In this document: positions 9,010 to 25,188 of the stretch, in pieces
Layout of the letters: the number at the start of each line of letters is the position of its first letter
How positions within the stretch are numbered: position 1 is the stretch's first letter
Virus record (IMG/VR): IMGVR_UViG_3300022542_001157
Strand: one strand, 5' to 3'
Length of the DNA: 42,619 bases
Origin: a virus
The notes under the pieces: generated by a model
The model's database searches: none
Told to the model about the DNA's origin: nothing
What the model saw: the letters and a program-made list of their open reading frames with translations, nothing else
Program-made: the position numbers and the translations under genes

Positions 9010-9011
9010 AA

Positions 9012-11351
9012 ATGCTTGAATTCTTAAAAAAGAAACGGCCCACAAAATTTCAAGAAGAAAAGAAGGAAGAGACTGTCCCTACTCAGGAAACTGCGTTTTG
9101 GGCCGACTCCCTGATTTTAACCATGGGCGGTTCGTTCGAAAGATACAACCCAGATATGTTAGCCACCCGTAAAGGGTATGATATTTACCGAAAAATGCTA
9201 AGGGACGACCAGGTAAAAGCTGTTTACAACCTGCTTGTAAACATCATTATTTCCCGCCAAATCGTTTTTGCGCCTGCTGATGACTCCGAAGAACAACAAG
9301 AAATAATCGATTTCTTCAAGTATAACATCACTACCGCTATTAAAGGCACGTGGTTAAGTGCCCTTCGGGCGGTTTTGCTCGGTAAGGCCCACGGTTTTTC
9401 TATTTCTGAAAAAAATTGGAAATTGGACACCATAGATGGTAAGGAATATTGGGTAGTGGACTCCATTAAGCCGAAGCCGTATGAAAGTTTCACCTACGAT
9501 ATTGATGATTTCGGGAACATCAAAGCCTTGTACCAAGACACCAACGGTGTCCGTAAAAAGCTCGACCCTGATAAATTTATCATTTATGTGGCCAACCCCG
9601 AGTTAGACCCTATTTGGGGTGAATCCGACCTTCGGGCGGCATACCGACCGTATTGGGAAAAGGACATCATCGGCAAATTCCACAATATTTACTTAGAACG
9701 CTTAGCGGGTGGATTTTTAGCAGTCACACCGGACAAGGACGCCCCTGTTTTGACACCACAAGAAAGGGCCGACCTCAAGAGTGTTATTGGAAATGTCCAG
9801 AAGATGACCGGGGCTTTGTTTCCCAGGGGATACAAGCCGGAAGTGGTGATGTCGGAGTCTACAGCGGAATTTGAAAGTGCTATTGCTGGAAAAAACCGGG
9901 CCATTGCAAAGTCACTATTGGTTCCGAATCTGTTGGGCTTGTCCGAGGATGGGAAATTCGGTTCCAGGGCGCTGGGAGACATCCAATTTGAAACATTCAT
10001 GATGGTGGTTAAAGAGCAGGGTGATTACTTGGCCGAAATCATGAATGAGCAGTTTTTTAGCCAGCTTGCTTTGTGGAATTTTGGTGTGAAAGATTTCCCG
10101 AGATTCCGTTTTGAGGATTTTACTATTGCCCAACGGCGTGAAATTGCAAAAGCTTGGGGTGAAGCGGTGGCGTCCAAAGTTGTTGTAAATACGGAAGAGG
10201 ACGAACAGCATACCCGCGAATTGTTGCTCTATGAACGTCGGGACATGGACGCTGAGGTAGAGGATGATGAAGAGGGTACAGGAAGTACCCCGGAAGACCA
10301 AGAAGAGGAAGAGAATATTGAAGCACCTGAGGAAAGTTCAAAAGGCCAGGAAATACCCACGGGGAGCCAGGAGGACATGTCTATACATGTAAAGAATTTT
10401 GCAGAGGATGGAGCCGATTTCGACAAACGATTAGACTTTGCCGCCCTGGAAACCACATTTGATACTTTGGAAGAAGTCTTTTTTGAAGACCTGTCCAAAT
10501 CAGTGGACAGGATCATGGGCGAGATCACCACAGCCTATGCGGAAGAATTTAAGAAATTGCCGAAGGACAAAGACAAGATCGACTATACCGAGATTCAAGA
10601 AGCAATAATGAAATCAGTTTCTGCCCCAGCCAAAGCGGAACTCAAAAAGAATACGCAAAAAAATTTAAAATCGGCATATGATTCTGGAAGATCCGAGGCC
10701 AAAGGCACACTGAACGACATCGTAAAAACGGCCCCCGCAGATATCAGGCAAAGGGTAAAATTGTCTTCCTCGCTTTCAAAAAGGTTGGCTTGTAAAAAAC
10801 AGAATTGGTCTGTTCTAAATTTCATTGATGGTATAAGTCTGGATAGTGTGGTTTCCTATTTTGAATCGCAAGCGTTTTTTATTACGGGTGAAATCGCCAC
10901 AGACATGTTAGACGCGGCGGCCAGGATTTTTGTGAATGGGGCCCGAGATGACAAATCTGTGGATGAAATGGTGGCTGAGCTTGAAGGGTTACTCCCGACT
11001 TTGGTTGGGACCCCAGAAAGTAAGGAAAGTCGGGCGAGATTAACTACCATAGCCCGTACTAATATCACCACGGCATTTAATCAAGCCCAATTGGCAGTTT
11101 ATGCTGACCCCGAGCTTGGAGATTTTGTGGAAGGAATGAGTTATTCAGCCATCGTGGATTCCAGAACTACAAGTTTTTGCAAAGCATACCATAACAGAAA
11201 ATTTCTGTTATCTGACCCTGTTTGGTCTACGATAACACCGCCTAACCATTTCAATTGCAGATCAGTCATGATACCAATAACGGTATTGGACGAATGGACA
11301 AAATCAAAAGCCATTAAAAGCGTACAGCCTGCGGCAGGATTTGGAGTATAA
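9012..11351 (+). CDS. Portal protein (Mu gp29/DUF935-like) fused to a Mu-F/SPP1-gp7-like minor head domain
   Basis: 779 aa. N-terminal YDIYRKMLRDDQVKA-type portal signature, acidic linker, C-terminal DSRTTSFC...PPNHFNCRS signature. Confidence 0.8.
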   Translation: MLEFLKKKRPTKFQEEKKEETVPTQETAFWADSLILTMGGSFERYNPDMLATRKGYDIYRKMLRDDQVKAVYNLLVNIIISRQIVFAPADDSEEQQEIIDFFKYNITTAIKGTWLSALRAVLLGKAHGFSISEKNWKLDTIDGKEYWVVDSIKPKPYESFTYDIDDFGNIKALYQDTNGVRKKLDPDKFIIYVANPELDPIWGESDLRAAYRPYWEKDIIGKFHNIYLERLAGGFLAVTPDKDAPVLTPQERADLKSVIGNVQKMTGALFPRGYKPEVVMSESTAEFESAIAGKNRAIAKSLLVPNLLGLSEDGKFGSRALGDIQFETFMMVVKEQGDYLAEIMNEQFFSQLALWNFGVKDFPRFRFEDFTIAQRREIAKAWGEAVASKVVVNTEEDEQHTRELLLYERRDMDAEVEDDEEGTGSTPEDQEEEENIEAPEESSKGQEIPTGSQEDMSIHVKNFAEDGADFDKRLDFAALETTFDTLEEVFFEDLSKSVDRIMGEITTAYAEEFKKLPKDKDKIDYTEIQEAIMKSVSAPAKAELKKNTQKNLKSAYDSGRSEAKGTLNDIVKTAPADIRQRVKLSSSLSKRLACKKQNWSVLNFIDGISLDSVVSYFESQAFFITGEIATDMLDAAARIFVNGARDDKSVDEMVAELEGLLPTLVGTPESKESRARLTTIARTNITTAFNQAQLAVYADPELGDFVEGMSYSAIVDSRTTSFCKAYHNRKFLLSDPVWSTITPPNHFNCRSVMIPITVLDEWTKSKAIKSVQPAAGFGV

Positions 11352-11354
11352 AAT

Positions 11355-12170
11355 ATGAGTATCAGACGCGACAAATTTGGAACCGCTATTTTAGATTTGC
11401 CATTCAATATGTCCTTGGGTGAAATTCCTGGGCTGTCTAGGTCATACAAATTTGGAAAAGTTTCGGGACTTGATACTGTTCAACGAACCATTTGGACTGC
11501 GGGGTTTGAGTATAACCCACCGCCGGGGCCAACTGCAATGTCTTTTGCTTCCACTAGTCCGAATGACACCTCTGGCGGTAGTGGCGTAAATTATATAAAA
11601 GTAAACTATGTCGGATCTGGCTTTAATGAATTTACGGAGGTGCACTGCCTTAATGGCCAAACACCAGTTTCTCTGGCACATCCAGTGCACACTATCAACC
11701 GGGCGAAAGTATTGGCGGATGATATCGATGCCAAAAATGCTGGTCCGATATGGGCTGGGGCGGGTAGTTTCTCTGCGGGGGTCCCATCAAGCGCATATAC
11801 CCATATTGAATCCGGGGTCGGACAAACATACCAAGCGTTTTACACACTTCCCAACAATCAGCATATGCTGATTTATGACATGATATTGACCGCCAATGAG
11901 GGGAAAGAGGGTTCCATAGAAATGTTTGCGAGGGAAAACGCGGAGGTATTTTCAGGCTTCCCTAATGCGAGGAATACATTTCAGGCCAAAAATCATTATG
12001 ATATTTTTCAAACAACATTGCCGATTCAACGGAAAATTCCGTTGTGTTTTGGTCCGAAAACTGAGATCATATTTAAGGGGCGTGGCAAAGCGACGTTGAC
12101 TGATTTGTCTGTGGAAGGAACTTTTGTTTTGGTCAACTCAACTTATTTACATGGTTTAACAGGGCTATAA
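11355..12170 (+). CDS. Hypothetical virion-module protein, 271 aa
   Basis: ORF tightly packed between the portal and protease/scaffold genes. Confidence 0.7.
   Translation: MSIRRDKFGTAILDLPFNMSLGEIPGLSRSYKFGKVSGLDTVQRTIWTAGFEYNPPPGPTAMSFASTSPNDTSGGSGVNYIKVNYVGSGFNEFTEVHCLNGQTPVSLAHPVHTINRAKVLADDIDAKNAGPIWAGAGSFSAGVPSSAYTHIESGVGQTYQAFYTLPNNQHMLIYDMILTANEGKEGSIEMFARENAEVFSGFPNARNTFQAKNHYDIFQTTLPIQRKIPLCFGPKTEIIFKGRGKATLTDLSVEGTFVLVNSTYLHGLTGL
11674..11689 (+). promoter_or_regulatory. Near-consensus sigma54-type motif (one mismatch), sense, intragenic
   Basis: TGGCACATCCAGTGCA. GG-N10-GC is kept; first T of the -12 element (TTGCA) is G. Confidence 0.15.
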
Positions 12171-13187
12171 ATGGCAAACATTATCTTAAAAGTAGAAATC
12201 TTTGGGGTTGGGACTTGGAACGGGTTCAAATTCGTACAAGAAGACCTGGATGAAATTGTAAGAAACACAATAGCACTTCAAAAGAAAGGGAACGCCAAGC
12301 CTCGCCTAAAGTTGGGGCATTCGAACAACCAGATTTTAGAAGGACAAGAAGATGGGGACCCTGCTTTGGGTTTCATGTCTAATTTTGCGGTATCGGGTGA
12401 CAAGATAATTTCCGACTTTATCGATCTCCCAGATATCATTTTCAATTTGATTGAGAAAAAACGTTTTGTAAGTGTTTCAGTCGAATTGGACCATATACCA
12501 AATTTTGGTTGGTATATACAAGCCGCCGCTTTATTGGGGGCGGATTTGCCAGCGGTCAAAACGCTGAACGATTTACAAATGTTTTTAAGCGACACAAACA
12601 CGGGCGTAAGTGAAAATGCGCTTTGTTTTTCAGAACCAACAATTAACAAAAAAAAGGAGGTCATAGGAATGACGCCCGAAGAAAAAGCAGAAATGGACAG
12701 ATTAAAGGCCGCCAATACTAAGTTGGAGGGTGACTTAACCAAGTCCAACGCGGATTCCGCGAAATTCAAAGAGGAAAAGCGGGTTGCCCAATTTTCTGAA
12801 AAAAAAGCTGAATTGCTCAAGCCATTTAGCGAGCAGGTAAAAGTGGGGAAGCTGACCCCCGCAAGCTTCACAAAATTGGAGACTTCCCTGGATGCTCAAT
12901 CCAAGCACTTTTCCGAAGGTTCGGAATTGCAAGTGCCGATTAACATTTTGACAGAGTTGATGGCGGATGAATCCAGAATCAATTTTTCAGAAACTGGGGC
13001 CGTTGATGGGGATGGCGGGGATTCTGGTGTGACTCCAGACAAGGCTTTGGATATGGCAATCCAAAAAGTCATGGGAACTTCCCAAAAGACATATTCGGAG
13101 GCTTCCAATATCGTTATGGCCACAGAGCCAAAACTGTTTAAGGCCTACGCGAAGTGGACCGAAGACATCAGCTACGGGAGGGTGTAG
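12171..13187 (+). CDS. Prohead protease/scaffold protein (Mu gpI-like or DUF2213-like)
   Basis: N-terminal VGTWNGFKF...KLGHS region followed by a Lys/Glu-rich coiled-coil half, located just upstream of the capsid gene. Confidence 0.6.
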   Translation: MANIILKVEIFGVGTWNGFKFVQEDLDEIVRNTIALQKKGNAKPRLKLGHSNNQILEGQEDGDPALGFMSNFAVSGDKIISDFIDLPDIIFNLIEKKRFVSVSVELDHIPNFGWYIQAAALLGADLPAVKTLNDLQMFLSDTNTGVSENALCFSEPTINKKKEVIGMTPEEKAEMDRLKAANTKLEGDLTKSNADSAKFKEEKRVAQFSEKKAELLKPFSEQVKVGKLTPASFTKLETSLDAQSKHFSEGSELQVPINILTELMADESRINFSETGAVDGDGGDSGVTPDKALDMAIQKVMGTSQKTYSEASNIVMATEPKLFKAYAKWTEDISYGRV

Positions 13188-13189
13188 GA

Positions 13190-13609
13190 ATGTCAATTCA
13201 AAATAAATATATGTCATGGACGTTTAAAGCGTCCAACGCCCTGGATAATTTGACTGCGGGAACTGGCCATTTGTATAAAGCTGTTAGCAATGGCGCTGGG
13301 GACATCGCCGCGAATGGAAAGGCTTCAGGCATCTTGCAACAAGGTGGGCCGTCCGGGGGGCATATCTCCTTTGGGTATGCCGGAATCATGAAATTTGTCG
13401 CGGGTGCGGCTGTTTCTTCCAAAGATGTCGCGTTGACGGTAACGACTTCTGGGTATTTTGTGGAAGCGACTTCTGGTACTTTTATTGTCGGGAGGTATCT
13501 CGGCGGAACCAACAATGCAATTGCGATCTCCTCTGGAAGCGTCGGGACCGGGATGTTTGATTTTACTAAACCCACATACGTCGGTTGTGATGCCGCCGCT
13601 ATTTTCTAA
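13190..13609 (+). CDS. Head decoration/cement-like protein (DUF2190-like), 139 aa
   Basis: Gly/Ala-rich small protein between scaffold and capsid. ATG 13190 behind GGGAGGGTGTAGGA. Confidence 0.5.
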   Translation: MSIQNKYMSWTFKASNALDNLTAGTGHLYKAVSNGAGDIAANGKASGILQQGGPSGGHISFGYAGIMKFVAGAAVSSKDVALTVTTSGYFVEATSGTFIVGRYLGGTNNAIAISSGSVGTGMFDFTKPTYVGCDAAAIF

Positions 13610-13620
13610 GGAGGAATAAA

Positions 13621-14586
13621 ATGGGTGGATATTTACAAGGGCGTGGAATTCACGTCGACCAGCATTTGACCAATGTTGCTATCAATTATAAACCGCTGGG
13701 GTTTATTGCAGATTTGGTGGCACCGGTTGTTCCAGTCATGCACCAATCTGGGATGTTCAAGACGTATAACCAAGCCGATCTGTTTCGGATCGAGAATGAC
13801 CACAGAAGCCCAGGAACTGAGGCCAATAAAGTGGCCTTCCAGGTAGGCTCTGGTAGTTATTTTGCGAAAAACTTCGCATTGAAAGCTGACGTCACGATTG
13901 AAGATCGTGCAAATGCCGATCCTGCTTTTTTTCGTGATTTGGAGTCTGGGCGTGTTGAATTCCTGAAAGACAAATTGTCTTTGGCAAAGGATCTTCGAGT
14001 TGCGACCTTGATGACTACTGCAACTAATGTGGCAACACAAACGGTGGTGGCTTCCGCATGGAACGATTTGACCAACTCTGATCCATTTGGGGATATCAAT
14101 AGTGTGATCGACCTGCAGGAAGATAAAACCGGGTATCGCCCAAATAAATTGGTTTTCTCGTCTATTGCCTTTCGGAATGTTACTCGGAACGCGTCTATCA
14201 TTGACAAGACGAACAAAACTGGTGTGACTGGGGGCGGGCAAAATGCCACAATCAATCAACTCAAAGAGCTGTTCAACGTTCCTGAAATTCTGGTTGGTGG
14301 GGCTCAGTACAACACTGGGGATGAGGGACAAGGCTTGACCCTTTCTCATATGTGGGCCGAAAATGTTTTTGTTGGGTATGTTGCAGAACGACCCAGCATT
14401 GACCGTCCTTCGTTTATGTACAGTTTCAGGTGGAGAAAGCCCGGACTGGCCAACATGAATGTTGAACGCCATCCATTTGATACCAAGACCAAAACGGACG
14501 AAATCGAACTCGGGTATTACCAAGACGAAAAAATCGTTTCCACCGATTTGGGGTATTTGATTTCTTGGGTCAACTGTTCCCAGTAA
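13621..14586 (+). CDS. Major capsid protein
   Basis: 321 aa. Strongest late RBS (TAAGGAGGAATAAAATG). Position after scaffold/decoration genes. Followed by an intrinsic terminator. Confidence 0.8.
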   Translation: MGGYLQGRGIHVDQHLTNVAINYKPLGFIADLVAPVVPVMHQSGMFKTYNQADLFRIENDHRSPGTEANKVAFQVGSGSYFAKNFALKADVTIEDRANADPAFFRDLESGRVEFLKDKLSLAKDLRVATLMTTATNVATQTVVASAWNDLTNSDPFGDINSVIDLQEDKTGYRPNKLVFSSIAFRNVTRNASIIDKTNKTGVTGGGQNATINQLKELFNVPEILVGGAQYNTGDEGQGLTLSHMWAENVFVGYVAERPSIDRPSFMYSFRWRKPGLANMNVERHPFDTKTKTDEIELGYYQDEKIVSTDLGYLISWVNCSQ

Positions 14587-14594
14587 TCTGAATC

Positions 14595-14616
14595 AGGCGG
14601 GGCAACCCGCCTTTTG
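14595..14616 (+). terminator. Rho-independent terminator/attenuator after the capsid gene
   Basis: AGGCGGG-GCAA-CCCGCCT followed by TTTTG. Confidence 0.75.
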
Positions 14617-14630
14617 AATGGAGTTTTATA

Positions 14631-14939
14631 ATGGCTTTAAAAGGTTTTAAAGTTACACGACCACCAATCCCAAATATCATGTCTCCCTCGGGGAAGCTGA
14701 ATGCGGCAAAATCCGAAATTAAATCGCTGGAGAAAGAATTGTCAAATCTGAAAGAGGGCGGTTTGGGTCTTCCGGATGGAACAGTGGCGATTCAAGGATT
14801 CTTTCCACTTTTTGATTTGACAAAGAAAGAATTGGTCGAAGAAGGGAAAGGTGTTGGGCTCGATGCCCTTGACCCCAAAAGCCCCAAAGACCAATTGTTA
14901 AAAGACATTTTTGAAATCTTGTTCAAAGATCTTCTATGA
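14631..14939 (+). CDS. Hypothetical protein, 102 aa
   Basis: ORF with a TGGAG RBS. ATGA overlap with the next gene. Confidence 0.65.
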   Translation: MALKGFKVTRPPIPNIMSPSGKLNAAKSEIKSLEKELSNLKEGGLGLPDGTVAIQGFFPLFDLTKKELVEEGKGVGLDALDPKSPKDQLLKDIFEILFKDLL

Positions 14940-15886
14940 GTTCTGTAAAGATCTTTACCAATGAGGTTGCTGGAGGTTGGTCCCCCCATGATATTGAAGA
15001 AATGTTGGGCGGTTCTGAGGAGTGCGTAGTGCTTTTGGCAGAACAGATGGCCGCCAGTGGGCATGAAGTCAAAGTGTACCATACGCCGAAGCATGATGAA
15101 ATGGGGGCTTTTCGGAAGGGAGTTGAATACTCCCCAAGAGCGCAGTTTGTGCCGAATCCGGATGACGTCGTAATCACTTTTAAAGATTATACGCCTTGGG
15201 TTCGGGGTGTGAATGCCCGAATTAAGATTCACTGGTCATCGGATGTAGAAGGCGTGTGGGATACTTCGTTGGTAGACCATTTTGTTAATTTGACCGAATA
15301 CCACCAACGCCGCAATTTTTTTGTGCGGACCGACAAGCGGCGGGTCATCCCGCACGGAATAGATGTCGAACCAGGCGAAAAGACCGAGCATGGGACAATG
15401 CTTTATTGCAGTTCCCCCGACAGGGGCCTGATAGAGTTACTGCAGGACTGGAAAACTATCCGAAGTCATTTTCCAGAAATGCAATTAAAAGTGGCTTACG
15501 GATTTGATTTGTTCGACAGGGTTATGGGCACTAATGGTTTTGAATTTAAACGGGCAATTTTGAACTTGGCTAAACAACCCGGCATTTCTTTTCTGGGGAC
15601 TTTGAGCAAGGATGAATTGAACGAGCAGTACCGCAAAGCGGAATATTGGGTATTACCATTGCAACGCCCAGATTCTGAGTTGTTTTGTCTGAATGCGATA
15701 AAATCCAGAGTGTTGGGGTGTATTCCAATCGTCAACAAAGTTGGGGCACTTGAAAATACTGTGGGTGATTTTATCGATTATTCGGAATTTGTAGGGGGGA
15801 ACCCCGTTTTGAAAGAGTCTAATCGGCCAGTTCCGGCCATGGATTGGGCTCAAATCTATGAAAACTTTTGGAAAAAATTACTATGA
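14936..15886 (+). CDS. GT-B-fold glycosyltransferase (GT4-like)
   Basis: N-terminal GG-x-E...LAEQMAASGHEVKVY pattern. C-terminal E-x7-type region EYWVLPLQRPDSELFCLNAIKSRVLGCIPIV. Confidence 0.7.
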   Translation: MSSVKIFTNEVAGGWSPHDIEEMLGGSEECVVLLAEQMAASGHEVKVYHTPKHDEMGAFRKGVEYSPRAQFVPNPDDVVITFKDYTPWVRGVNARIKIHWSSDVEGVWDTSLVDHFVNLTEYHQRRNFFVRTDKRRVIPHGIDVEPGEKTEHGTMLYCSSPDRGLIELLQDWKTIRSHFPEMQLKVAYGFDLFDRVMGTNGFEFKRAILNLAKQPGISFLGTLSKDELNEQYRKAEYWVLPLQRPDSELFCLNAIKSRVLGCIPIVNKVGALENTVGDFIDYSEFVGGNPVLKESNRPVPAMDWAQIYENFWKKLL

Positions 15887-18774
15887 AAATTATCGTATAT
15901 GTCCCAGGCATGGCCTTTGATGGGAACACTTTGAAAGCAGGTAAAAGTCTCGGGGGCTCTGAGACTATGGGACTTATTGTGTCCCAAGAATTGGCAAAGC
16001 GTGGGCATCGTGTAATTTGTTTTTGCAACACAAACGGACCGTCGTTTACTGACAACGTGGAATATTTACCGATCGGCCCAGCAGATAATAACACCCCCTT
16101 TGGGGCCAATTTCGAACGATACGCGGCAGAGATCCCACATGATGTTTTACTGGCCCAAAGAGCGGCGGGGGTTTTCCATAAAAAGTTTAATTCCAAATTG
16201 AATTATTTTTGGACTCATGATCTTGCATTAAAACGCCACGCCGGGGCAATGGCAAGTATGCTTTGGAACACAGATCGAATTTTGGGGGTGTCAGAATGGC
16301 ACAAAAAACAAGTGTCCGAGATCTACGACTTGAACGATGGTTTCATTTCAGTTTTACGAAACGGCATAAATCTTGCAGATTTCAGTCCAGAGGCCGGTCG
16401 CTTGAAATTTAATTCAAAGACTTTGTTGTATACCTCCAGACCGGAACGGGGACTCGAAAATCTCGTGAAGCCCGGCGGAATCATGGAACAGTTGTATAAA
16501 CTGGACCCCGAAATCCAGTTGGTGGTGGCTGGGTACGACAATACCACCGAACAAATGGCCCAATTTTACAATTATCTGTGGGGAAGGTGTGAAGAACTCC
16601 CAAACGTAAAGAATTATGGCCCCCTTGGGAAAAAACAGCTGTACGAATTAATGGGGAAAGCGGCGTTGCATGTGTACCCCACCGAATTTGAGGAAACTAG
16701 TTGTATTACCATGATGGAAGAACAAGCCAGCGGCACCCCAGTGGTCATTACAAATGTTGGGGCACTCCCTGAAACTCTAGCCGGGGGTGGTATGTGGGAT
16801 GCCGATGTCGAGAATTTCGCTGGCGCAATTGAAGGGTTGTTGTCGAATTTCGAAACATGGTACAAAAGACATGAATTGGCCCTGAAAAAAGCCAAAAATT
16901 ATTGTATTGAAGCCGCAGTGGACGACCTTGAAGGGCTTATCCTAGACGATTTTGTAAGACTGTCTAGGAACGTTAACGCGGTGGCGGCTGGGTTGATCCG
17001 AAATTCGGACTTGGTTGCGGCAGAGAAGTTGACTGGGGTTCCTCCAGACGTCGATGCCCCTACCTTTTCTCAATCCACCAAAGAATCCGAGCGTTTTTAT
17101 GAAAACATTGCGGAATACAACATTGACATCGGGAACAAACATTCCCTGGGTAAATACGACAGAATCTTGTCAATGCCGAGGTTACAGCCTGTGATTGACC
17201 AGTTGGCCGACCTTCCAGACGGGGCCAAGGTGTTGGATTACGGTTGTTGTGTGGGGCATGTCACAACCGCCTTAGCTGACAGGTTTCCAAATCTGCAGTT
17301 TGTTGGAGTCGATATTTCGAAATTGCAAATCGACATCGGGAACAAATTTATTGACGCTAACGGATTGACCAACGTCAAATTGATGAACAGTCCAGATGTC
17401 AACCACCCGAAAATTGACAACGATTTTGATGCAGTTGTTGCTCTGGAAATCTTGGAACACATTCATGATTTTGGCGGTTTTCTGGCTGGGCTGTTGAAAC
17501 ACCTAAAATTGGGTGCGCCGGTTATCATATCCACTCCAGCGGGGCCTGTGGAAGCATTCCGGGGTGAAGAGGACCACCCACTCGAACATTTACACCACTT
17601 TGAGGAACAGGATATATTGGACATCATCGGGGACCAAGATGGGTTTAATGTTGTCTATATCAACGATTTTGATTCGAAGACAGGTGATAAACTCGGAAAT
17701 TTTGTGTGGTGGTGGAAACGAAGCCAGAAGAAACTTGGAAAAATTGACTATAACAAAAAACTGATTTTCCAAAACCCGATTCAAACGGTTTCCTGTTGTA
17801 TGGTTGTTTCCGGCAATACCGGGTCACTGAAAAGGACATTGGATTCTGTCTCTTTCGCCTCAGAATTTATTATCGGAGTTGACGGGGCCGAGGATTCCGA
17901 AGCGTTCCGAATTGCTAAACAATACGGGGCAGATGTGTTTTGTTTGACTGGAAGTCCACGAGAAATCGGATTTGATGAAGCCAGGAATGAAACTATTGAA
18001 AAGGCGGGGTGCGATTGGATTTTGTGGATTGATGACGATGAAGTGTTTCAGTGGCCAGAAAGGGTGTTGAAATATTTTAGAAACAACCAGTTTGACTCTT
18101 ACAGTATCGCGCAACACCATTTTAGCGCCGAACCTGCAGGGCTTTTAAAAACTGATTTGCCCGCCAGAATTTTTAGAAATCACAAAGGGATTAAATTTTA
18201 CGGCGTGGTCCATGAACACCCGGAAGTCGGAGTCAATGAGGGGCCGGGTAAAACTTTTGTGATCCCTGCCAATGAAGTGGCTATTTGTCATAATGGGTAT
18301 GATACCGAAATCACACGTCGGGAGCGCTTTCAACGAAATTTCCCCCTGATGGAACGGGAAATCAAAAAGCACCCAGATCGTTTGTTGTCAAAGTTTTTGT
18401 GGATTCGGGATTTGGCCCACTTGAACAAATTTGAATATGAACGGTTTGGAAGAATTACGCCAGAAATTAAGGCCAGGGCACAAGAAGCAATCAAAATTTG
18501 GCGGGGTTTGCTGGAGGATGCGCCAATTCGGATTGTTTCGGACTCCATACCATATGTTTCGGAGGCCGTGGATATCCTCACCGAAGGAGGCGGTTACCTG
18601 TTTAATTTCTGCTTGGATATGTCCTACCGGGGATTTGGGGATTTGGTGGACGGGAAAAGCAACGGAAACATCATCACGGGGAAATTGGAAACCAAAGAGG
18701 ACCTTCTTTTATTGATGAATAAATTCGTTTCAGAAAAAACAAAACCTTTTGAAGAAAACGCAAAGTATTTATAG
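15883..18774 (+). CDS. Three-domain enzyme: GT4-like glycosyltransferase, SAM-dependent methyltransferase, GT2-like glycosyltransferase
   Basis: GGSETMGL...KRGHRV and PTEFEETSCITMMEEQASGTPVV (GT-B). VLDYGCCVGH and VVALEILEHI (class I MTase motifs). CCMVVSGNTGSLKRTLDSV...WILWIDDDEV (GT-A DxD). Start ATG 15883 overlaps the upstream stop (ATGA). Confidence 0.8.
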   Translation: MKIIVYVPGMAFDGNTLKAGKSLGGSETMGLIVSQELAKRGHRVICFCNTNGPSFTDNVEYLPIGPADNNTPFGANFERYAAEIPHDVLLAQRAAGVFHKKFNSKLNYFWTHDLALKRHAGAMASMLWNTDRILGVSEWHKKQVSEIYDLNDGFISVLRNGINLADFSPEAGRLKFNSKTLLYTSRPERGLENLVKPGGIMEQLYKLDPEIQLVVAGYDNTTEQMAQFYNYLWGRCEELPNVKNYGPLGKKQLYELMGKAALHVYPTEFEETSCITMMEEQASGTPVVITNVGALPETLAGGGMWDADVENFAGAIEGLLSNFETWYKRHELALKKAKNYCIEAAVDDLEGLILDDFVRLSRNVNAVAAGLIRNSDLVAAEKLTGVPPDVDAPTFSQSTKESERFYENIAEYNIDIGNKHSLGKYDRILSMPRLQPVIDQLADLPDGAKVLDYGCCVGHVTTALADRFPNLQFVGVDISKLQIDIGNKFIDANGLTNVKLMNSPDVNHPKIDNDFDAVVALEILEHIHDFGGFLAGLLKHLKLGAPVIISTPAGPVEAFRGEEDHPLEHLHHFEEQDILDIIGDQDGFNVVYINDFDSKTGDKLGNFVWWWKRSQKKLGKIDYNKKLIFQNPIQTVSCCMVVSGNTGSLKRTLDSVSFASEFIIGVDGAEDSEAFRIAKQYGADVFCLTGSPREIGFDEARNETIEKAGCDWILWIDDDEVFQWPERVLKYFRNNQFDSYSIAQHHFSAEPAGLLKTDLPARIFRNHKGIKFYGVVHEHPEVGVNEGPGKTFVIPANEVAICHNGYDTEITRRERFQRNFPLMEREIKKHPDRLLSKFLWIRDLAHLNKFEYERFGRITPEIKARAQEAIKIWRGLLEDAPIRIVSDSIPYVSEAVDILTEGGGYLFNFCLDMSYRGFGDLVDGKSNGNIITGKLETKEDLLLLMNKFVSEKTKPFEENAKYL
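16362..16377 (+). promoter_or_regulatory. Weaker sigma54-type motif, sense, inside the glycosyltransferase gene
   Basis: CGGCATAAATCTTGCA. Confidence 0.2.
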
Positions 18775-18781
18775 GGGTATC

Positions 18782-19207
18782 ATGATTTGGAAAATTTTAA
18801 AACATTTAAAAAGGGGGTCGTCATGGGGCGACCCCGAAAGAATGGACCCGTTATTGTTGTTCATTCTTGATCGGATCATTGATGAGTTGCCCACTGGGTG
18901 TGTTGCCAAAATCCATTGTGGATTTAAAACCGTCGGGCATTCTTCGAAGTCGATGCACTACAAGGCGAAAGCGGTGGATTTCCATATTGTCGGTGTTCCT
19001 TTTTTGGTGGCCGAAACCCTTATTTCTGAATTCCTGCACAAAACAGGACTGGTAGATTTGGTTGGGTTTGGGATTTATCCGGAATGGAACAGTCCTGGGT
19101 TCCATTTGGACACCCGCGGGAAACGGGCTTCATGGGGGCGGGTTGGCGGCGAGTATGTCGCATATGCATCAGCCCTTGAATATGCAAAAACAGAAAAGGT
19201 AGTTTAA
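18782..19207 (+). CDS. Peptidase M15-family (zinc D-Ala-D-Ala carboxypeptidase/L-Ala-D-Glu peptidase-like) cell-wall hydrolase
   Basis: H-x6-D (SMHYKAKAVDFH) and PGFHLDT zinc-ligand pattern. ATG at 18782. Confidence 0.75.
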   Translation: MIWKILKHLKRGSSWGDPERMDPLLLFILDRIIDELPTGCVAKIHCGFKTVGHSSKSMHYKAKAVDFHIVGVPFLVAETLISEFLHKTGLVDLVGFGIYPEWNSPGFHLDTRGKRASWGRVGGEYVAYASALEYAKTEKVV

Positions 19208-19663
19208 ATGACTGTCACGTACGCGAGTTTTTTAGAATTTACGGCGGTTTATTCGATTCAGTTTGTGTCGGAAGCCGAGATCAACAGTTCTTTCCTTCCG
19301 TACGGGGCGCTCAGGGTCAATGAATCTTTGGGGAAATGTTATGCAACCCCTTTTTCCAGTGACAATCTGACTGCCAAGGATTTAAGCATCCATTTTGCTT
19401 ACCTGGGGTATTTGCTCAAGACCCGGAATCAAACGGATTCTGAGGAGTTGAGCAAAGATTTACAACTCAGAGTGACAGATATTTGCTGCGGGAATGCCCC
19501 AATGATAACGAATAGTGGCACAAGCCTTTTCCCTGAAAATACAGCGGGGGCTGAGGCGTGGAGCAACACCCAGGACTATAAACCAACTTTCGATATGCGG
19601 GACCCGTTAGATCAAAGGGTTGATCCAGATCTGATCGACAACATTTGGTTAGAGGATGTTTAG
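19208..19663 (+). CDS. Putative head-tail connector/adaptor (DUF1320-like)
   Basis: 151 aa. Position and size; weak motif similarity only. Confidence 0.45.
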   Translation: MTVTYASFLEFTAVYSIQFVSEAEINSSFLPYGALRVNESLGKCYATPFSSDNLTAKDLSIHFAYLGYLLKTRNQTDSEELSKDLQLRVTDICCGNAPMITNSGTSLFPENTAGAEAWSNTQDYKPTFDMRDPLDQRVDPDLIDNIWLEDV

Positions 19664-20119
19664 ATGGCGGCCTCCCTTTTCAACATCCATACCAAAGGGG
19701 CTGATGCCCTAATCAAAAAAACTGGTGTTATCCAGCGGCGAATGCGTAACCGAAGACCGGTTTTCATGGCGGCAGTGATCGAGTACGAAAAATGGATAAA
19801 GAAAAATTTCGAAGCTTCTGGAAGAATGCACGACAACGCAAAATTCCATTGGAAGCCGCTGAAGCCCAAAACAATTGCCGCCCGCAAAAAAGGTGGTGGT
19901 GGTGCTCAGATACTTAGAGACACTAACAATTTGATGCTTCGTTGGGAACGGACAGCTACAAACAACAAGGGCAGGATAAAATCCGGGGTCTTTTATTCCG
20001 GTGTCCACCAAGACGGGGCCGGGCCAGTTCCTCAACGGCGAATTTTCCCGACCAAAAAACAAGGGAAAAAGATTGTTAGACCTGTTTTTGAACATTTTGT
20101 AAAGAAGGCTTTTCGATGA
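19664..20119 (+). CDS. Virion morphogenesis/head-tail joining protein (Mu gpG-like)
   Basis: W-x-PLKP-x-T...ILRDTNNL...YSGVHQDG...RRIFP pattern typical of the family. Confidence 0.55.
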   Translation: MAASLFNIHTKGADALIKKTGVIQRRMRNRRPVFMAAVIEYEKWIKKNFEASGRMHDNAKFHWKPLKPKTIAARKKGGGGAQILRDTNNLMLRWERTATNNKGRIKSGVFYSGVHQDGAGPVPQRRIFPTKKQGKKIVRPVFEHFVKKAFR

Positions 20120-20562
20120 TTTATATAAATTCGATCACAAACGCTTTATTCACTGCTATTACGAGTGACCAGACCGTCGTCAATAGCGGGTTCAAGGCCC
20201 AAAAATATGAAATATACAACACGATCCCGAATTTGTCTCCGTGGATTGGGGTTTATCGGCCAGAAATTGATATTGAACCCAGACGGGCACAGGGGCCGAA
20301 CCCGTGGATGGCAAGACTTGATATCCCGCTCTTTATACAAGTTGCCGGGAACGCAAGCGCTTTAGAAAGAGCGCAGGACGAATTGGAAAGGGTGACAAGC
20401 ATTGTGATGACTGCAGTTGATTGCAACCGTGATCTGAAAAACACCGTGGAAAGTATAATCGGGTACACGGTAACTCCACTTGGGCAAAGTGGAGAGGACG
20501 ACCCGAATCAAGACTATTTTTATGCAAATGAAGTTCATATTTTCGCTGAGGTTTTCGCATGA
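20116..20562 (+). CDS. Hypothetical neck/tail-terminator-position protein, 148 aa
   Basis: ATGA-coupled ORF between the connector and tail tube genes. Confidence 0.6.
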   Translation: MIYINSITNALFTAITSDQTVVNSGFKAQKYEIYNTIPNLSPWIGVYRPEIDIEPRRAQGPNPWMARLDIPLFIQVAGNASALERAQDELERVTSIVMTAVDCNRDLKNTVESIIGYTVTPLGQSGEDDPNQDYFYANEVHIFAEVFA

Positions 20563-20723
20563 TACAAGCAGTTTGGGCCGGTCCAGAAGGTTTGACCCCA
20601 TATGGGTATAAGAAAAAAGGCGATTTACTGCCGCTTTCTGATTCCCAATTTAAAAAGTTGAAGTCGGAAAAATTGGTCGAGCGACAAGCGGAGCCAGAAA
20701 CGAGCAAAAAAAGGAGTAAATAA
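20559..20723 (+). CDS. Small ORF, 54 aa (MIQAVWAGPEGLTPYGYKKKGDLL...), below ORF-track cutoff
   Basis: ATGA overlap with the upstream stop and TAATG overlap with the tail tube start. Fills the gap exactly. Confidence 0.5.
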   Translation: MIQAVWAGPEGLTPYGYKKKGDLLPLSDSQFKKLKSEKLVERQAEPETSKKRSK

Positions 20724-21673
20724 TGGCTGGATATGGTATGAAAAGCCACGCGCTTTTCAATTTTCAAGATAGTTACGGGGCGTCTCAAGTAGACTCCTTT
20801 CAAGCGGTGCCATTTGTCAGTGAGTCATTGACCGACAATATTGAGCAGATTATTGAAGCCAGTATGTACAGTAGATTTGCCCAATCGCCTAGCCACGCTG
20901 GCCTCCGAAGTATAGAAGGTGACATTCAAGCAGAGGCCAACCCCGTAATATTGGGGCACATGCTAAAGTCCACCGTGGGCCTCACGAGTACCACGAGCGA
21001 CACAGGGACACAAACCCATGTATTCCAGCCCAGACAAGCGGATTTTGACGAAAGAGCCGCAACTGACCCCCTGACACTAGAAATTTACCGGGACCAGGGG
21101 AGTGCTTTTTTGTATAGCGATATGTGCGGAAACACCTTGGGTTTGAGCGTCGCGAATGGTGAATTGTTGGCGGTTACTTTGGGTTTGTTGGGTGGAAACG
21201 TAACCAAACAAGCTGGGTCAACTCCGATTTTCCCAGTGGCCAAGCCTTTCAAATGGGACCAAGTGAGCGCGTCCTACAACGGAGTGGCGGTGGTGGATTT
21301 GGTTGATTTGACGATAAATTACAACAACAATTTGTCGAACAAATACACCATGCAGAACACCAACACCCCCAGGAAAACCAAACGCGACAATATGTACTCC
21401 ATTGAAATCGCGGGGACCATGATTTTCCAGGACCACATTTTTTATGATGCTTACACCGAAGGGCAAGAAGCACCTTTTGTAATCAATTGGGCAAGCCAAG
21501 AGGCCCCCAATACTTTGAAGATCGATTTTCCGTTATTGAGGTTTAAGCAAGTGACACCGGTGGCTGGTGGCCCTGGGATGATTGAGGTCCCATTTACCGC
21601 CGATGCTAAATTTTCGGTCACAAGCAATACCGACATGACCATTACCCTGGTTAACACCCAGGAATATTATTAG
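20723..21673 (+). CDS. Major tail (tube) protein
   Basis: 316 aa, immediately upstream of the chaperone-frameshift pair and the tape measure gene. Confidence 0.7.
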   Translation: MAGYGMKSHALFNFQDSYGASQVDSFQAVPFVSESLTDNIEQIIEASMYSRFAQSPSHAGLRSIEGDIQAEANPVILGHMLKSTVGLTSTTSDTGTQTHVFQPRQADFDERAATDPLTLEIYRDQGSAFLYSDMCGNTLGLSVANGELLAVTLGLLGGNVTKQAGSTPIFPVAKPFKWDQVSASYNGVAVVDLVDLTINYNNNLSNKYTMQNTNTPRKTKRDNMYSIEIAGTMIFQDHIFYDAYTEGQEAPFVINWASQEAPNTLKIDFPLLRFKQVTPVAGGPGMIEVPFTADAKFSVTSNTDMTITLVNTQEYY

Positions 21674-21681
21674 GAGAGAAA

Positions 21682-22095
21682 ATGTTTGTAAATCTTGATT
21701 ATCAAGAGTTTGAAGTACAAGAAGGAATCACGATGGAAATAAAATCATTAGACACGCTGTCTTATCAGCGTGTCATGGGGTTTCTTAGTGGTGGCGGGTT
21801 TGATCAAAGTGTTGATGCAAAAATCCGGGCGGAGAAATTGCAGAAATCTTTTTCCTCCCCTGAAATTTATGAATTGTTGAAGGATTTGCTTCCAAAACAT
21901 TGCAGGAACCTTAAAGGATTAAACCTGCGCGTTGATGGGGTGGAGCGCATCGCAACAATTGATGACATTGTGTCCCATGGGGTGTTTTTAACTATGTGCG
22001 TGAATATCATGGTTAAAATCTTTACAAACTCGGCTATTTCCAAAGGCGAGGAAGATGTAATAAAAAAGGCAGTGCCCGCCTTGCCAGAGGCATAA
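21682..22095 (+). CDS. Tail assembly chaperone (gpG analogue)
   Basis: 137 aa. Contains the in-frame slippery A_AAA_AAG near its 3' end. Confidence 0.8.
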   Translation: MFVNLDYQEFEVQEGITMEIKSLDTLSYQRVMGFLSGGGFDQSVDAKIRAEKLQKSFSSPEIYELLKDLLPKHCRNLKGLNLRVDGVERIATIDDIVSHGVFLTMCVNIMVKIFTNSAISKGEEDVIKKAVPALPEA

Positions 22096-22322
22096 CAATC
22101 CAAGGCGGGCCCATGGTCCGTGGGTTTTTGGTAAATACGTGGTTTGACCTGTTCATGGCGTGTCACAACATCGGCACCGGTGGCGTAATTCAGTGGTGTT
22201 GGCCAGACGGGAAAAGCGTTTTCGAACAACCCGCATATATGTCTAAAATTTTCAAATTGATCTTAACCGAAATCAATAAAGCGGCAAAACAAGCAAAGGC
22301 AAATGGCAAGCGGAAAGATTGA
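21682..22322 (+). CDS. Tail assembly chaperone -1 frameshift fusion (gpGT analogue); shift at 22062..22068
   Basis: After a -1 slip the reading ...KKGSARLARGITIQGGPMVRGFLVNTW... runs into the 22113..22322 frame. Confidence 0.75.
22062..22110 (+). promoter_or_regulatory. Programmed -1 ribosomal frameshift signal: heptamer A_AAA_AAG plus 9-bp stem-loop
   Basis: Heptamer at 22062..22068 in the zero frame. GCCCGCCTT (22074..22082) pairs with AAGGCGGGC (22102..22110), 5 nt downstream. Confidence 0.8.
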
Positions 22323-25188
22323 AACTATAATTACCGGAAAAGACACATCGGGGAAAGCTTTTAAAAGCTTTTCTGTGAATTTGACGGAATTGAATCAAGG
22401 AATTGAATTGTTGTCCAAGGCCATGGACGCTTTAGTGGCCCCATTTGCCGCCGTTATTGATGAGGGGTCACAATTCACCGCACAGATGTCTGCAGTTGCG
22501 GCTATTTCTAAAACCACTGCAGACGAATTTTCAAAACTCACCGACGAAGCCAAACGAATTGGGGAAACCACAGCATTTACCGCCATTCAGGCTGGGGAAG
22601 CCATGGAAGAACTCAGGCGTGCTGGCTTGGATACTGCAGACACCTTAACCACCACGGCGCAAGCCATGGATTTGGCCGCCGCCACGGGTTCTGACCTCGC
22701 CACTGCCGCCCGTGTTGTGGCTGTTCAAATGAAAGTGTTTGAGGGAGAATCACTCCAGGCAAAAAAAGCTGTAGACCTCATGGTCCAAACGGTTGGAGCT
22801 TCACCACAAGACTTTTCCGCATTAACTGCCGCCTTGGAAACTTCCGGGGGTGTCGCGTCTGCAATGGGCATCGATTTTAAAGAGCTTACTGGAATTCTGG
22901 GGGCGATGGCCAACGCTGGTGTTCGTGGGGAAAAAGCCGGGACTGCTTTAAATGGTGCAATCGCAAGATTATTGAATCCCGCGAAGGGGGCGGCTGATGT
23001 TCTTACAAAATACGGAATTTCGCTTGACCAAGTAAACCCGACTACTCAAAAATTCGCGGATATCTTGGATACTTTAAAAGATGCTGAAATTGAGCAGAAA
23101 GATTTGCTCACTCTTTTGGGTCAAGAAGCCGGGCCAAAGTTCTTCAAGGTTATTGACCAGGGTGGTGATTCCATCCGGGATTTTACGAAAGCTCAGGAGG
23201 AATCCAACACAGCGGCGGAAGCGGCGAGAATCAGACTGGACAATTTGACTGGGGATGTTACCTTATTTGACTCCGCAATGTCTGGTATCAAAATCCAAAT
23301 TTTTGAAACTTTTGATGACGTCCTTCGAGGAGTAGTACAGCAATCCACCGCCATGGCTGGGGCTTTTACTGCGTTTCTGAAACAAAACCAAGGGCCGATG
23401 ACTGCATTTTTTCAGGGCTTGGGCGATAAAATGGACACTGTTAAAGAGGTCATCGCTTCCATGGTTCGCGGTTTTGGTTTCCTGCTGGAAGGGTTCGGAC
23501 AATTGCTGTCATCGGGACCGGTCCTGGAATTCATTGACCAACTTGAAAAAGCTTTTACCAAAATTTATACCGAGGGAATATTACCTCTAGTCGGGAAGAT
23601 TAGAGAATTTATCGAGGTGATCTTCGAGACTGTTTCCTCGAATGAAGATTTGTCAGTTGTACTGGAAAATGTTTTCAAATTGTTTGGAATTGGAGTGGGG
23701 GTGATTTCTGACCTTTCCGTAATGGCTTATCAATTGATAGCCGCCATAATTGGCGTTGCTTCGGACGCTTTCGGCCCGTTGTTTGATATTTTGGTCAAAG
23801 TGGTCCGGGTGATGACCGAGGATATGCTTTCTGCAATCGATTTCGTAAATGATTCAATTGACGCTGTTGGGGGCGCAGTCAAAACCATAACTGGCGTTTG
23901 GAAAAGTTTCATGGACATGATCGATGACACACTACAAGACATCAACACCACAATAACCAATGTAAAAGAAACTTGGGATTCGTTTGTCCAGGGATTCAAA
24001 GACGCTCTGGAGCCTGTCCGGAAGTTCAAGCAATTCATGGACGGAGTTGATGACACCATCAATCGGAAATTAAAAGCCGGTTTCAAAGTTGGGGCGGACG
24101 CGGTAGTGGATTTCACAAAGAAAATTGTTGGTGCCGATGAAGCCTCCAAAGATCTTAGTTGGACATTGGTAGGGAACACGTTGTCTGTGGATGCTAAAGT
24201 GACAGGTGACGCTTTTATCGCGGCCGGTAGAAGTTTACAACAGTACGGGCTGGACACCGATGAAGCAAACAAAGCGTCTAAGGAATTGAACAAGACTATC
24301 TCGGATACTGGGGATGAATTAGATGATGTAACAGCAAAGGCAAAAGATGCTGGTGCCGCTCTTGCTGAGGCGTCAGCAAGTGGCGATTTTAGTGGGTTGG
24401 GGGACATCGGGATTTCGGCGGCTAAGAAAATCACGGGCGTAAGTGGCGCTATTGAAGGATTCGCACAAGGGGGGGTTGCCGGGGCTATTGCCGGGGCAAT
24501 CATGGAATTGCTTTTCGCAAATGAACAATTTGCTGAGGCATTTGGGGAGTTAAATAAAACCATTGGGGAAGTTATAGCGCCATTATTGGTAGAGTTCATA
24601 CCGATAATTAAAGAATTGACGGTATTGGCTAAAGCAATGGCCCCAATATTTAAAAAATTAGCGCCATTATTGGGTGCTTTTCTCGCGATTTTTACCACTA
24701 TGATTGGCGGGGTTGTCGCTTTAGTTGATTTTTTTGTGGACGTCGCAGAGGATTTGTCGGTTGCGTTCGAGCGTTTCGGAGAAGGACTTGAAGGGGTTGC
24801 TGGTTTCTTAGAGGACCTTATAGATTCCCTGGATTCATTGCTGGAGCCTATTGCGGATTTGATCGATGCTCTTTCAGGTGGAGTTGGTGGGGCGGCGAGT
24901 GAAGCGGGAAATCTTCTCTCCGATATCGGCAGTGTTCTTGGTTTCGCGGGCGGCTCGGATGGTTTGACACAAGACCAACTTTTGAGAATTCCAGGGATGG
25001 AAGTCGGATCGGGACTGATCAAAGCCCATGTTGGGGAAGTAGTGACCCCAGCTGGCGAAGCCAATGGGGTCGGTGGGGCAATCAGTATTACAATGAATGT
25101 GCGGTCTATCAACCCACGGGAGCAGACAAATGAAATCAGACAATTGCTGGAAGAGTTATTTTTATCTGGGAGGCTGCGGGTAGCGTGA
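22303..25188 (+). CDS. Tape measure protein
   Basis: 961 aa, Ala/Gly/Leu-rich and helical, positioned after the chaperone pair. Confidence 0.9.
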   Translation: MASGKIETIITGKDTSGKAFKSFSVNLTELNQGIELLSKAMDALVAPFAAVIDEGSQFTAQMSAVAAISKTTADEFSKLTDEAKRIGETTAFTAIQAGEAMEELRRAGLDTADTLTTTAQAMDLAAATGSDLATAARVVAVQMKVFEGESLQAKKAVDLMVQTVGASPQDFSALTAALETSGGVASAMGIDFKELTGILGAMANAGVRGEKAGTALNGAIARLLNPAKGAADVLTKYGISLDQVNPTTQKFADILDTLKDAEIEQKDLLTLLGQEAGPKFFKVIDQGGDSIRDFTKAQEESNTAAEAARIRLDNLTGDVTLFDSAMSGIKIQIFETFDDVLRGVVQQSTAMAGAFTAFLKQNQGPMTAFFQGLGDKMDTVKEVIASMVRGFGFLLEGFGQLLSSGPVLEFIDQLEKAFTKIYTEGILPLVGKIREFIEVIFETVSSNEDLSVVLENVFKLFGIGVGVISDLSVMAYQLIAAIIGVASDAFGPLFDILVKVVRVMTEDMLSAIDFVNDSIDAVGGAVKTITGVWKSFMDMIDDTLQDINTTITNVKETWDSFVQGFKDALEPVRKFKQFMDGVDDTINRKLKAGFKVGADAVVDFTKKIVGADEASKDLSWTLVGNTLSVDAKVTGDAFIAAGRSLQQYGLDTDEANKASKELNKTISDTGDELDDVTAKAKDAGAALAEASASGDFSGLGDIGISAAKKITGVSGAIEGFAQGGVAGAIAGAIMELLFANEQFAEAFGELNKTIGEVIAPLLVEFIPIIKELTVLAKAMAPIFKKLAPLLGAFLAIFTTMIGGVVALVDFFVDVAEDLSVAFERFGEGLEGVAGFLEDLIDSLDSLLEPIADLIDALSGGVGGAASEAGNLLSDIGSVLGFAGGSDGLTQDQLLRIPGMEVGSGLIKAHVGEVVTPAGEANGVGGAISITMNVRSINPREQTNEIRQLLEELFLSGRLRVA

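Follow-up and report, generated by a model that had tools for sequence, protein, structure and literature searches.

A capsid-adjacent glycosyltransferase-methyltransferase fusion as a candidate capsid-glycosylating enzyme of a clade of uncultured phages

Virus record IMGVR_UViG_3300022542_001157 from IMG/VR (42,619 nucleotides; "the window" below denotes this entire stretch) represents a siphovirus-type phage with a ~42.6 kb genome and a late module on the plus strand. Our analysis was focused on four genes of this module at positions 14,631 to 19,207, located between the major capsid gene and the first conserved head-tail connector gene. The largest of them encodes a 963-amino-acid (aa) fusion of two glycosyltransferase (GT) domains with a methyltransferase domain dependent on S-adenosylmethionine (SAM). 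Throughout a large clade of uncultured phages this fusion belongs to the core gene set; only two of its neighbors (a stand-alone GT-B glycosyltransferase and an M15 peptidase) are accessory. We propose, with a probability of roughly 0.6, that the fusion glycosylates and methyl-caps the major capsid protein in the cytoplasm; that some virion protein is glycosylated appears quite likely. The acceptor protein and its site, the sugar, the order of the steps, and the placement of the methyl group on the sugar rather than on protein are what we infer from the evidence laid out below. The features of the locus are as follows (positions are those of the window):

13621-14586, plus strand: major capsid protein, 321 aa, the proposed glycan acceptor (phrog_1005, 4e-68)
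14572-14583, plus strand: capsid tail N318-C319-S320-Q321, candidate O/S-glycosylation site
14595-14616, plus strand: hairpin with a 7-bp GC-rich stem followed by UUUU (Fold, free energy -16.5 kcal/mol, z = -2.1)
14631-14939, plus strand: 102-aa small protein with a C-terminal helix-extension-helix (HeH)/SAP/Rho_N-like motif
14936-15886, plus strand: stand-alone GT4-type GT-B glycosyltransferase, 316 aa (AlphaFold2 model, predicted local distance difference test score (pLDDT) 94.1)
15883-18774, plus strand: fusion protein, 963 aa, from an ATG that overlaps the GT-B stop as ATGA
15883-16962, plus strand: fusion domain 1 (aa 1-360), retaining GT4-type GT-B
17173-17727, plus strand: fusion domain 2 (aa ~431-615), class I SAM-dependent methyltransferase
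17770-18300, plus strand: fusion domain 3 (aa ~630-806), GT2 (GT-A, DxD) of the SunS/ThuS/GmaR type
18301-18774, plus strand: C-terminal helical domain of the fusion (aa ~807-963), proposed substrate-recognition module
18782-19207, plus strand: probable M15/LAS-type zinc peptidase, 141 aa (MIWKIL...), accessory gene
19208-19663, plus strand: first conserved head-tail connector gene, the downstream edge of a variable slot

The presence of these four open reading frames (ORFs) in the ORF list of the window and the gene order (capsid gene, four genes, connector genes) agree with an earlier reading of this DNA made without database searches (hereafter, the sequence-only reading), and its GT-B and GT4-methyltransferase-GT2 assignments were upheld by domain profiles and confident AlphaFold models, its M15 assignment being favored by a sub-cut-off profile match and conserved zinc ligands. 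Coupling of the genes is tight: start codons overlap the preceding stops as ATGA at 14936 and 15883, and TAAATG occupies 19205-19210. Their GC content overall and at third codon positions (GC3) equals that of the capsid, portal and tape-measure genes. No membrane-spanning segments were found in the fusion or in the other enzymes of the locus. The ATGA overlaps, the lack of a transmembrane-like segment and the GC/GC3 values shared with the structural genes speak for late, cytoplasmic expression. The longest ORF of the fusion opens at TTG 15868, and its homologues begin at the position of ATG 15883.

The fusion is modeled by AlphaFold2 as a single compact structure (pLDDT 92.7, predicted template modeling score 0.90). 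All three of its domains exceed Pfam cut-offs, and their catalytic motifs and residues are invariant in an alignment of 39 homologues (39-82% identity) from which the conservation values below are taken. Domain 1 is covered by Glyco_transf_4, Glycos_transf_1 and Glyco_trans_1_4 over residues 24-322, keeps E270 and E279 invariant in its EX7E region, and matches MshA, PimA, BshA and ManT (methylmannose-polysaccharide mannosyltransferase) in Foldseek and PDB searches. Domain 2 is recognized by Methyltransf_23/25/31/12/11 over residues 434-581 (1e-11 to 1e-13), with C455 and G458 of motif I invariant and D452 and Y453 conserved in at least 90% of homologues.

Domain 3, covered by Glycos_transf_2 over residues 648-759, is the most informative with respect to the substrate. 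Its best solved relatives in a profile search against PDB are GmaR (2.6e-23), SunS (7.8e-21) and ThuS (3e-16), and closeness to these three enzymes is seen by sequence, profile and fold. GmaR, SunS and ThuS transfer sugar straight onto proteins or peptides in the cytoplasm, and in each of them the GT2 domain is followed by a helical or tetratricopeptide repeat (TPR) domain. The fusion shares with these relatives the FxxARN, WIxxIDxD, FxGxVHExP, HxGY and RN motifs, and D717, D719, E720 and H777-E-H-P-E781 are invariant. The alignment with SunS and ThuS runs on into the helical C-terminal region of the fusion, which in the AlphaFold2 model contains four long helices at residues 809-900 and a further one at 938-958; Pfam assigned no TPR family to the fusion. 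GmaR adds N-acetylglucosamine to flagellin, and its TPR domain has been proposed to bind flagellin (PMC9638930). The substrates of SunS and ThuS are glycocin peptides, modified on Cys and/or Ser, and enzymes of the ThuS type carry out both O- and S-glycosylation (PMC12457901). We thus propose a protein-priming activity for domain 3 of the fusion.

A search of IMG/VR with the single fusion sequence gave no match, and an alignment-based search used instead revealed a relative of the fusion on 317 contigs. In a global protein collection, more than 120 clusters of full-length homologues (clustered at 90% identity) were found at 38-82% identity to the fusion, many of them on contigs of 40-50 kb; a protein identical to the fusion is encoded there on a contig of 42,693 bp. 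Among GenBank phages, no record covers at least 80% of the fusion and no blastn match to positions 13000-20000 was obtained; DNA-level similarity to cultured phages is thus lacking. The closest capsid proteins in these phages have 24-29% identity, and in 13 cultured phages whose capsid proteins are homologous no glycosyltransferase gene follows the capsid gene. The GT-MT-GT (MT, methyltransferase) architecture, regarded as unusual in the sequence-only reading, is therefore unusual only among cultured phages and is common in uncultured ones.

The genomic context of the fusion is nearly invariant. A capsid gene homologue lies directly upstream in 72 of the 73 fusion-anchored loci with more than 2.5 kb of upstream sequence (median gap ~320 bp), and, of the 29 loci in which the downstream sequence exceeds 8 kb, 28 have a homologue of the connector gene at 19208 on that side, at a gap of 0 to 6.8 kb. 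In a reciprocal test anchored on the capsid gene (202 IMG/VR relatives), the fusion was present downstream in all 47 loci with at least 2.5 kb on that side. The stand-alone GT-B and the M15 peptidase were observed in only 16 and 7 of 89 loci, respectively. The reading as a recently acquired horizontal island was rejected, because GC and GC3 match those of the structural genes and the synteny is universal. What had been described as an inserted island is better described as an ancestral core gene with two accessory neighbors. Inteins or insertions, considered for the long tblastn matches in three loci (L086, L088, L099), were rejected as well, the extra length representing an upstream paralogous GT-B gene.

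The same evidence bears on the possibility that these enzymes act on the host envelope (lipopolysaccharide, capsule, or another polysaccharide or glycolipid), where a methylated glycan would block superinfection or re-adsorption to debris. Such a role is suggested by the resemblance of the GT4 domains to PimA, WaaG, MshA and the methylmannose-polysaccharide mannosyltransferase, by the JGI annotation ("glycosyltransferase involved in cell wall biosynthesis"), and by the occurrence of some members in prophage-like elements of bacterial metagenome-assembled genome (MAG) contigs; bacterial O-antigen chains are, moreover, ended by combinations of a glycosyltransferase and a methyltransferase. We nevertheless consider it quite unlikely. 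The specific relatives of the GT2 domain are protein and peptide glycosyltransferases, not polysaccharide synthases, and the fusion is a universal core gene of a late operon, placed between the capsid and connector genes rather than as a moron near lysogeny genes. In addition to the lack of membrane segments, no flippase or Gtr-type partners were found in the window, and no integrase was found among its scanned ORFs, a scan that did not take in every ORF.

Turning to the proposed acceptor, the capsid protein matches an HK97-like phage protein (PDB 3bjq, 2.8e-31), and its C-terminus was compared between 71 distinct capsids of the clade and 13 outgroup capsids, all 71 drawn from one clade and without phylogeny correction. 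In the alignment of the 71 clade sequences this C-terminus is conserved as ...V-(N/T/G)-S-S-(T/Q) or ...V-T-S-V. A tail bearing Ser, Thr or Cys, which extends 2-4 residues past the end of homologous capsids, is present in 69 of 71 clade members (the strict end pattern [NTGDS][STC][STCA][STQVNL] being fitted by 54 of the 71) and in none of the 13 homologous capsids from phages without the fusion enzyme. The capsid of the window ends in N-C-S-Q, with Cys at the position occupied by Ser or Thr in 92% of clade capsids; Cys is found at the same position in one further capsid (L092), and two others (L126 and L112) end in S-C-A. Glycocins offer documented cases of Ser and Cys replacing one another at a glycosylated position, with Cys preferred by ThuS (PMC12457901). 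The capsid and tail-tube subunits of mycobacteriophages carry their glycans C-terminally (Freeman et al., 2023, cited through PMC12619734 and PMC11600133).

Combining these observations, we suggest the following mechanism. The fusion would be a soluble, cytoplasmic enzyme of three activities produced from the late structural operon. Its C-terminal helical domain would dock on a capsid subunit, and the GT2 domain would then move a first sugar from a host uridine diphosphate (UDP)-sugar to Ser, Thr or Cys, the best candidate for the priming site being the clade-specific capsid tail (N-C-S-Q in the window). The GT4 domain would lengthen the glycan, to which in this phage the stand-alone GT-B may add one further sugar, and the methyltransferase domain would finally O-methylate and, thus, cap it. 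Enzyme levels could be held well under the capsid level because the hairpin after the capsid gene is, in our proposal, leaky. A capsid-gene terminator had been claimed at this position. It was not listed by a consensus terminator scan, and the region was therefore folded directly, which revealed the GC-rich hairpin with its U-run; the hairpin is terminator-like and probably leaky.

A number of points weigh against this interpretation or limit its reach. The methyltransferase domain is generic, as O-, N-, C- and protein-lysine methyltransferases in PDB match it about equally well. The best NCBIfam match of the GT2 domain is the SunS family TIGR04195, at 58 bits versus an equivalog cut-off of 350, so by sequence the domain is a relative and not an equivalog of that family. 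In two close relatives (L099/L088 and L084) every catalytic residue of the fusion is kept and the capsids have no tail; the tail can therefore not be the sole acceptor. Three other capsid positions (T135, S145 and S259) are clade-specific, conserved at 85-100% and mostly Gly or Ala in outgroups, and these may be alternative candidate modification sites or just clade-specific structural residues. The only solved capsid homologue, 3bjq, is unaligned over the C-terminus and, thus, silent on its surface exposure, and the tail comparison carries the single-clade sampling described above. As the order of phage structural genes is generally conserved, adjacency to the capsid gene is suggestive and not specific. 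Peripheral-membrane GT4 enzymes acting on lipids or polysaccharides (PimA, WaaG) also have no transmembrane segments. Finally, the glycan of this clade is a prediction for phages known from sequence alone.

The tail-less capsids with an intact fusion also lend some weight to the alternative that the enzymes glycosylate or methylate another virion protein, such as the tail tube, the connectors or the small protein encoded just before the capsid gene:

13190-13609 (approximate), plus strand: small beta-rich, Gly/Ser/Ala-rich protein
19664-20119, plus strand: Neck1/tail-completion protein
20723-21673, plus strand: tail tube protein

The arguments from the protein-directed GT2 domain and from late expression hold equally for these proteins; the 13190-13609 protein is likewise a conserved neighbor, and the mycobacteriophage tail tube is also glycosylated (PMC12619734). 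This alternative is, however, unlikely in our estimate. Among the proteins compared, a clade-wide Ser/Thr-rich terminus is found only on the capsid protein: the C-terminus comparison yielded no conserved Ser/Thr C-termini in the tail tube, the connectors or the 13190-13609 protein, the tail tube ending in a conserved ...NTQxxY and the other C-termini being variable. Furthermore, the fusion is fixed beside the capsid gene, while the interval that separates it from the connector and tail genes differs by as much as 6.8 kb. Nothing favors the Gly/Ser-rich protein, which had been named as a possible target, over the capsid protein. The broader suggestion of a virion decorated with a methylated glycan remains the best explanation in view of the linkage to the capsid gene, the relatives of the GT2 domain and the capsid tail, with the acceptor, the sugar and the methyl target inferred.

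A more far-reaching version of the capsid reading, toward which we are more doubtful than confident, would be a clade-wide, obligate glycosylation of the extreme C-terminus of an HK97-type capsid by a three-activity enzyme of glycocin/flagellin glycosyltransferase descent, in a widespread clade of uncultured tailed phages of Gram-negative or of sediment and aquatic bacteria. Capsid glycosylation would then belong to the core of capsid maturation instead of being an optional extra. In the phage of the window this modification would be methyl-capped and, because Cys replaces the usual Ser in the tail, attached by a rare S-glycosidic bond.

To our knowledge, the only phages with demonstrated covalent glycosylation of their particles are a few actinobacteriophages, in which the modification dampens antibody recognition. 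If the proposed function is correct, environmental phages with a glycosylated capsid would be common (hundreds of contigs), capsid glycosylation would be a fixed core function in this clade, and a new type of substrate would be added to those of the glycocin S/O-glycosyltransferase family. With one 963-aa enzyme and a capsid tag of 3-4 residues, the system would also be compact and portable, and from it glyco-engineering of phage capsids or of other proteins in the bacterial cytoplasm could follow.

The remaining three genes of the set appear to differ in their relation to this function. By sequence, the stand-alone GT-B is an accessory paralogue of the N-terminal domain of the fusion (24% identity to residues 23-300 of the fusion in an alignment of 291 residues, E 1e-14); it falls just under the Pfam cut-off (26.3 vs. 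28.5 bits), and its model matches glycogen synthase, sucrose-phosphate synthase, PimA, MshA and ManT in Foldseek (1e-9 to 5e-11). With jackhmmer, homologues of the 102-aa protein were detected in at least 12 loci, encoded directly 3' of the capsid gene, and most remaining loci have some small ORF at this position. The window protein itself gave no family match in its own profile searches (Pfam, phrog and NCBIfam included), and its homologues gave sub-threshold Rho_N matches (2.5e-4 to 1.3e-2) plus one SAP match. This small protein probably binds nucleic acid or associates with the head, and probably takes no part in glycosylation.

The M15-like gene starts at ATG 18782 as judged from the alignment of homologues (mechanical start, TTG 18749). 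Peptidase_M15_2 matches its product at 1.6e-5 (25.1 bits vs. a cut-off of 27) and is also matched by five of eight homologues; the phrog_894 endolysin is matched at 2.9e-6, and the profile gave only non-significant Hedgehog (LAS-fold) matches in PDB. Residues H56, S68, H70, D77 and H119 are invariant, keeping the SxH...AxD...H zinc-ligand pattern. This protein, present in few loci, would most simply be a phage endolysin residing in the variable slot, outside the glycosylation function. No other lysin candidates were found in the scans run, which did not take in every ORF. Two candidate holin or lysis-accessory ORFs on the plus strand (29616-29930 and 29932-30186), each with one strongly hydrophobic N-terminal segment, follow the tail genes, far from the peptidase gene.

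Between the fusion and the connector gene, the related loci have a slot that varies in length from 0 to 6.8 kb and contains mostly uncharacterized accessory genes (e.g., L114 12576-17575, L086 15557-16234). About 20 loci share three uncharacterized families there, of ~170 aa, 180-1070 aa and ~90 aa, and a radical-SAM/SPASM protein occupies the slot in three loci (L086, L099, L162). A Pfam scan of ten recurrent slot genes revealed no sugar-related functions, the one significant match being radical-SAM/SPASM and the rest weak and below cut-off; thus, it adds no support for glycosylation.

Relatives of the fusion also occur as prophage-like elements in MAGs of Desulfobacterota, SAR324 and Gammaproteobacteria. 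In one Deltaproteobacteria MAG (982-kb contig JAOUEW010000001.1; loci L003/L004), the fusion is encoded in a compact phage-like element of ~20 kb (~2800-22800), in which the order is M15_3 peptidase, terminase, portal, protease, capsid, glycosyltransferase, fusion, connectors, tube and tail genes. The element, which has Mrr and FKBP genes on its flanks, includes a candidate short tape measure (269 aa, unannotated). It could represent either a prophage remnant or a locus for particles resembling gene transfer agents, with Desulfobacterota as a host clue.

The other late genes identified in the window are:

7047-7466, plus strand: small terminase
7463-8212, plus strand: large terminase, ATPase ORF, 249 aa
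8176-9009, plus strand: large terminase, nuclease ORF, 277 aa
9012-11351, plus strand: 779-aa ORF in which the portal is followed by a fused MuF/head-morphogenesis domain
12171-13187, plus strand: protease/scaffold
22303-25188, plus strand: tape measure

The two large-terminase ORFs overlap by 37 nt in different frames. The large terminase (TerL) is also split in relatives, with small ORFs between the two parts in L001 and with adjacent ORFs in L085, and the split looks less like a sequencing error than like a lineage trait, either a programmed frameshift or a TerL made of two pieces. The portal-MuF fusion is shared by L001, and the two are separate in the prophage-like L003.

Outside the late module, the window encodes a complete kit for a 2-aminoadenine (Z) genome (PurZ/MazZ/DatZ, 32880-35045, minus strand), with which a UvrD helicase is listed, as well as other proteins, including a SNF2-family helicase within 586-5972 (minus strand):

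3436-4362, minus strand: C5 cytosine DNA methyltransferase
4377-5972, minus strand: primase of the archaeo-eukaryotic primase (AEP) type
32880-33491, minus strand: DatZ-like HD-domain protein (6zpa, 2.8e-6)
33475-34005, minus strand: MazZ-like dATP/dGTP pyrophosphohydrolase
34002-35045, minus strand: PurZ, 347 aa (PDB: S-2L PurZ 7odx 6.6e-81, PhiVC8 PurZ 4.6e-80, PurA ~1e-22)
36765-38612, minus strand: family A DNA polymerase (PolA)
40829-42258: Pam3 gp33/gp34-like proteins

Judging by these genes, the genome probably replaces A with Z. The Z kit and the C5 methylase could be taken to favor a different role of the capsid-adjacent enzymes, namely hypermodification of phage DNA with methylated sugars on bases as a protection against restriction, and DNA-glycosylating phage glycosyltransferases, including GT-B enzymes, are well known (reviewed in PMC12619734, citing Pyle et al., 2024). 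This role is, however, very improbable: the scanned ORFs of the window include neither a hydroxymethylase nor anything else that would supply a base acceptor, the DNA-modification genes belong to the replication module and the fusion to the head module, and the GT2 domain is closest to protein glycosyltransferases.

Capsid glycosylation by the fusion, the reading that we prefer, finds its nearest precedents in four known systems. The first are the mycobacteriophage operons of the Che8, Corndog and Myrna type, with phage-encoded glycosyltransferases and, in cluster O, an O-methyltransferase (Freeman et al., 2023, Cell Host Microbe 31:1216, cited through PMC11600133 and PMC12619734). As in these operons, the enzymes are grouped with structural genes, the glycosyltransferases being tied to the structural module here by the location of the GT-B and fusion genes 3' of the capsid gene and 5' of the connector genes, and the capsid has a C-terminal tail with Ser/Thr/Cys. 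In contrast to them, the three activities are united in one polypeptide with a GT2 domain of the SunS/GmaR type, the gene is universal in its clade rather than sporadic, the tail is only 3-4 residues long, the relatives occur in MAGs of Desulfobacterota, SAR324 and Gammaproteobacteria rather than in Actinobacteria, and glycosylation is predicted from genes alone. A tblastn search with the fusion against 50,697 phage records yielded 20 matches, with no Mycobacterium phage at E <= 1e-5.

SunS, ThuS and GmaR, as the second precedent, share with the fusion the GT-A fold with its DxD and the conserved motifs, and the fusion model has a helical region after the catalytic domain that may correspond to theirs. 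The identity is only 20-33%, however, the GT2 domain of the fusion sits behind the GT4 and methyltransferase domains, and the fusion is encoded without a glycocin precursor, a transporter or a flagellar context.

The third precedent is A064R of the chlorovirus PBCV-1 (638 aa), which combines two rhamnosyltransferases and a 2-O-methyltransferase and builds the end of the capsid N-glycan (PMC9614988). Both are viral, soluble, single polypeptides that unite a pair of glycosyltransferase domains with a SAM methyltransferase domain; A064R acts on the glycan of its own major capsid protein with a methyl group capping the terminal sugar, and a similar function is proposed here for the fusion. On the other hand, the domain order is GT-GT-MT in A064R and GT-MT-GT in the fusion, the glycosyltransferase folds and families are different, and A064R belongs to a eukaryotic giant virus with an N-linked glycan that it extends and does not prime. 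A064R was absent from the best 50 fold matches of the fusion in BFVD and, by this comparison, is a functional analogue only, not a homologue.

The last precedent is the podovirus-annotated genome of an unrelated uncultured phage (MW202524.1) with several glycosyltransferase genes and two methyltransferase genes directly 3' of its capsid gene. In the N-terminal GT4 region the identity to the fusion is 28.5% over 321 residues (tblastn), although the genes are separate, differently arranged, part of a different genome and also uncharacterized; the cluster (1656-11978) is annotated with beta4glucosyltransferase, gtA, yqgM-like and 'has synthase' genes plus the two methyltransferases. Given this unfused cluster, glycosylation gene sets adjacent to the capsid gene seem to have arisen more than once, independently. 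Overall, the concept is known, and what is new is the architecture of the enzyme, the phage lineage and the status of a core gene, along with two features recognized by sequence comparison, the relatedness of the GT2 domain to protein and peptide glycosyltransferases and the clade-specific capsid tail.

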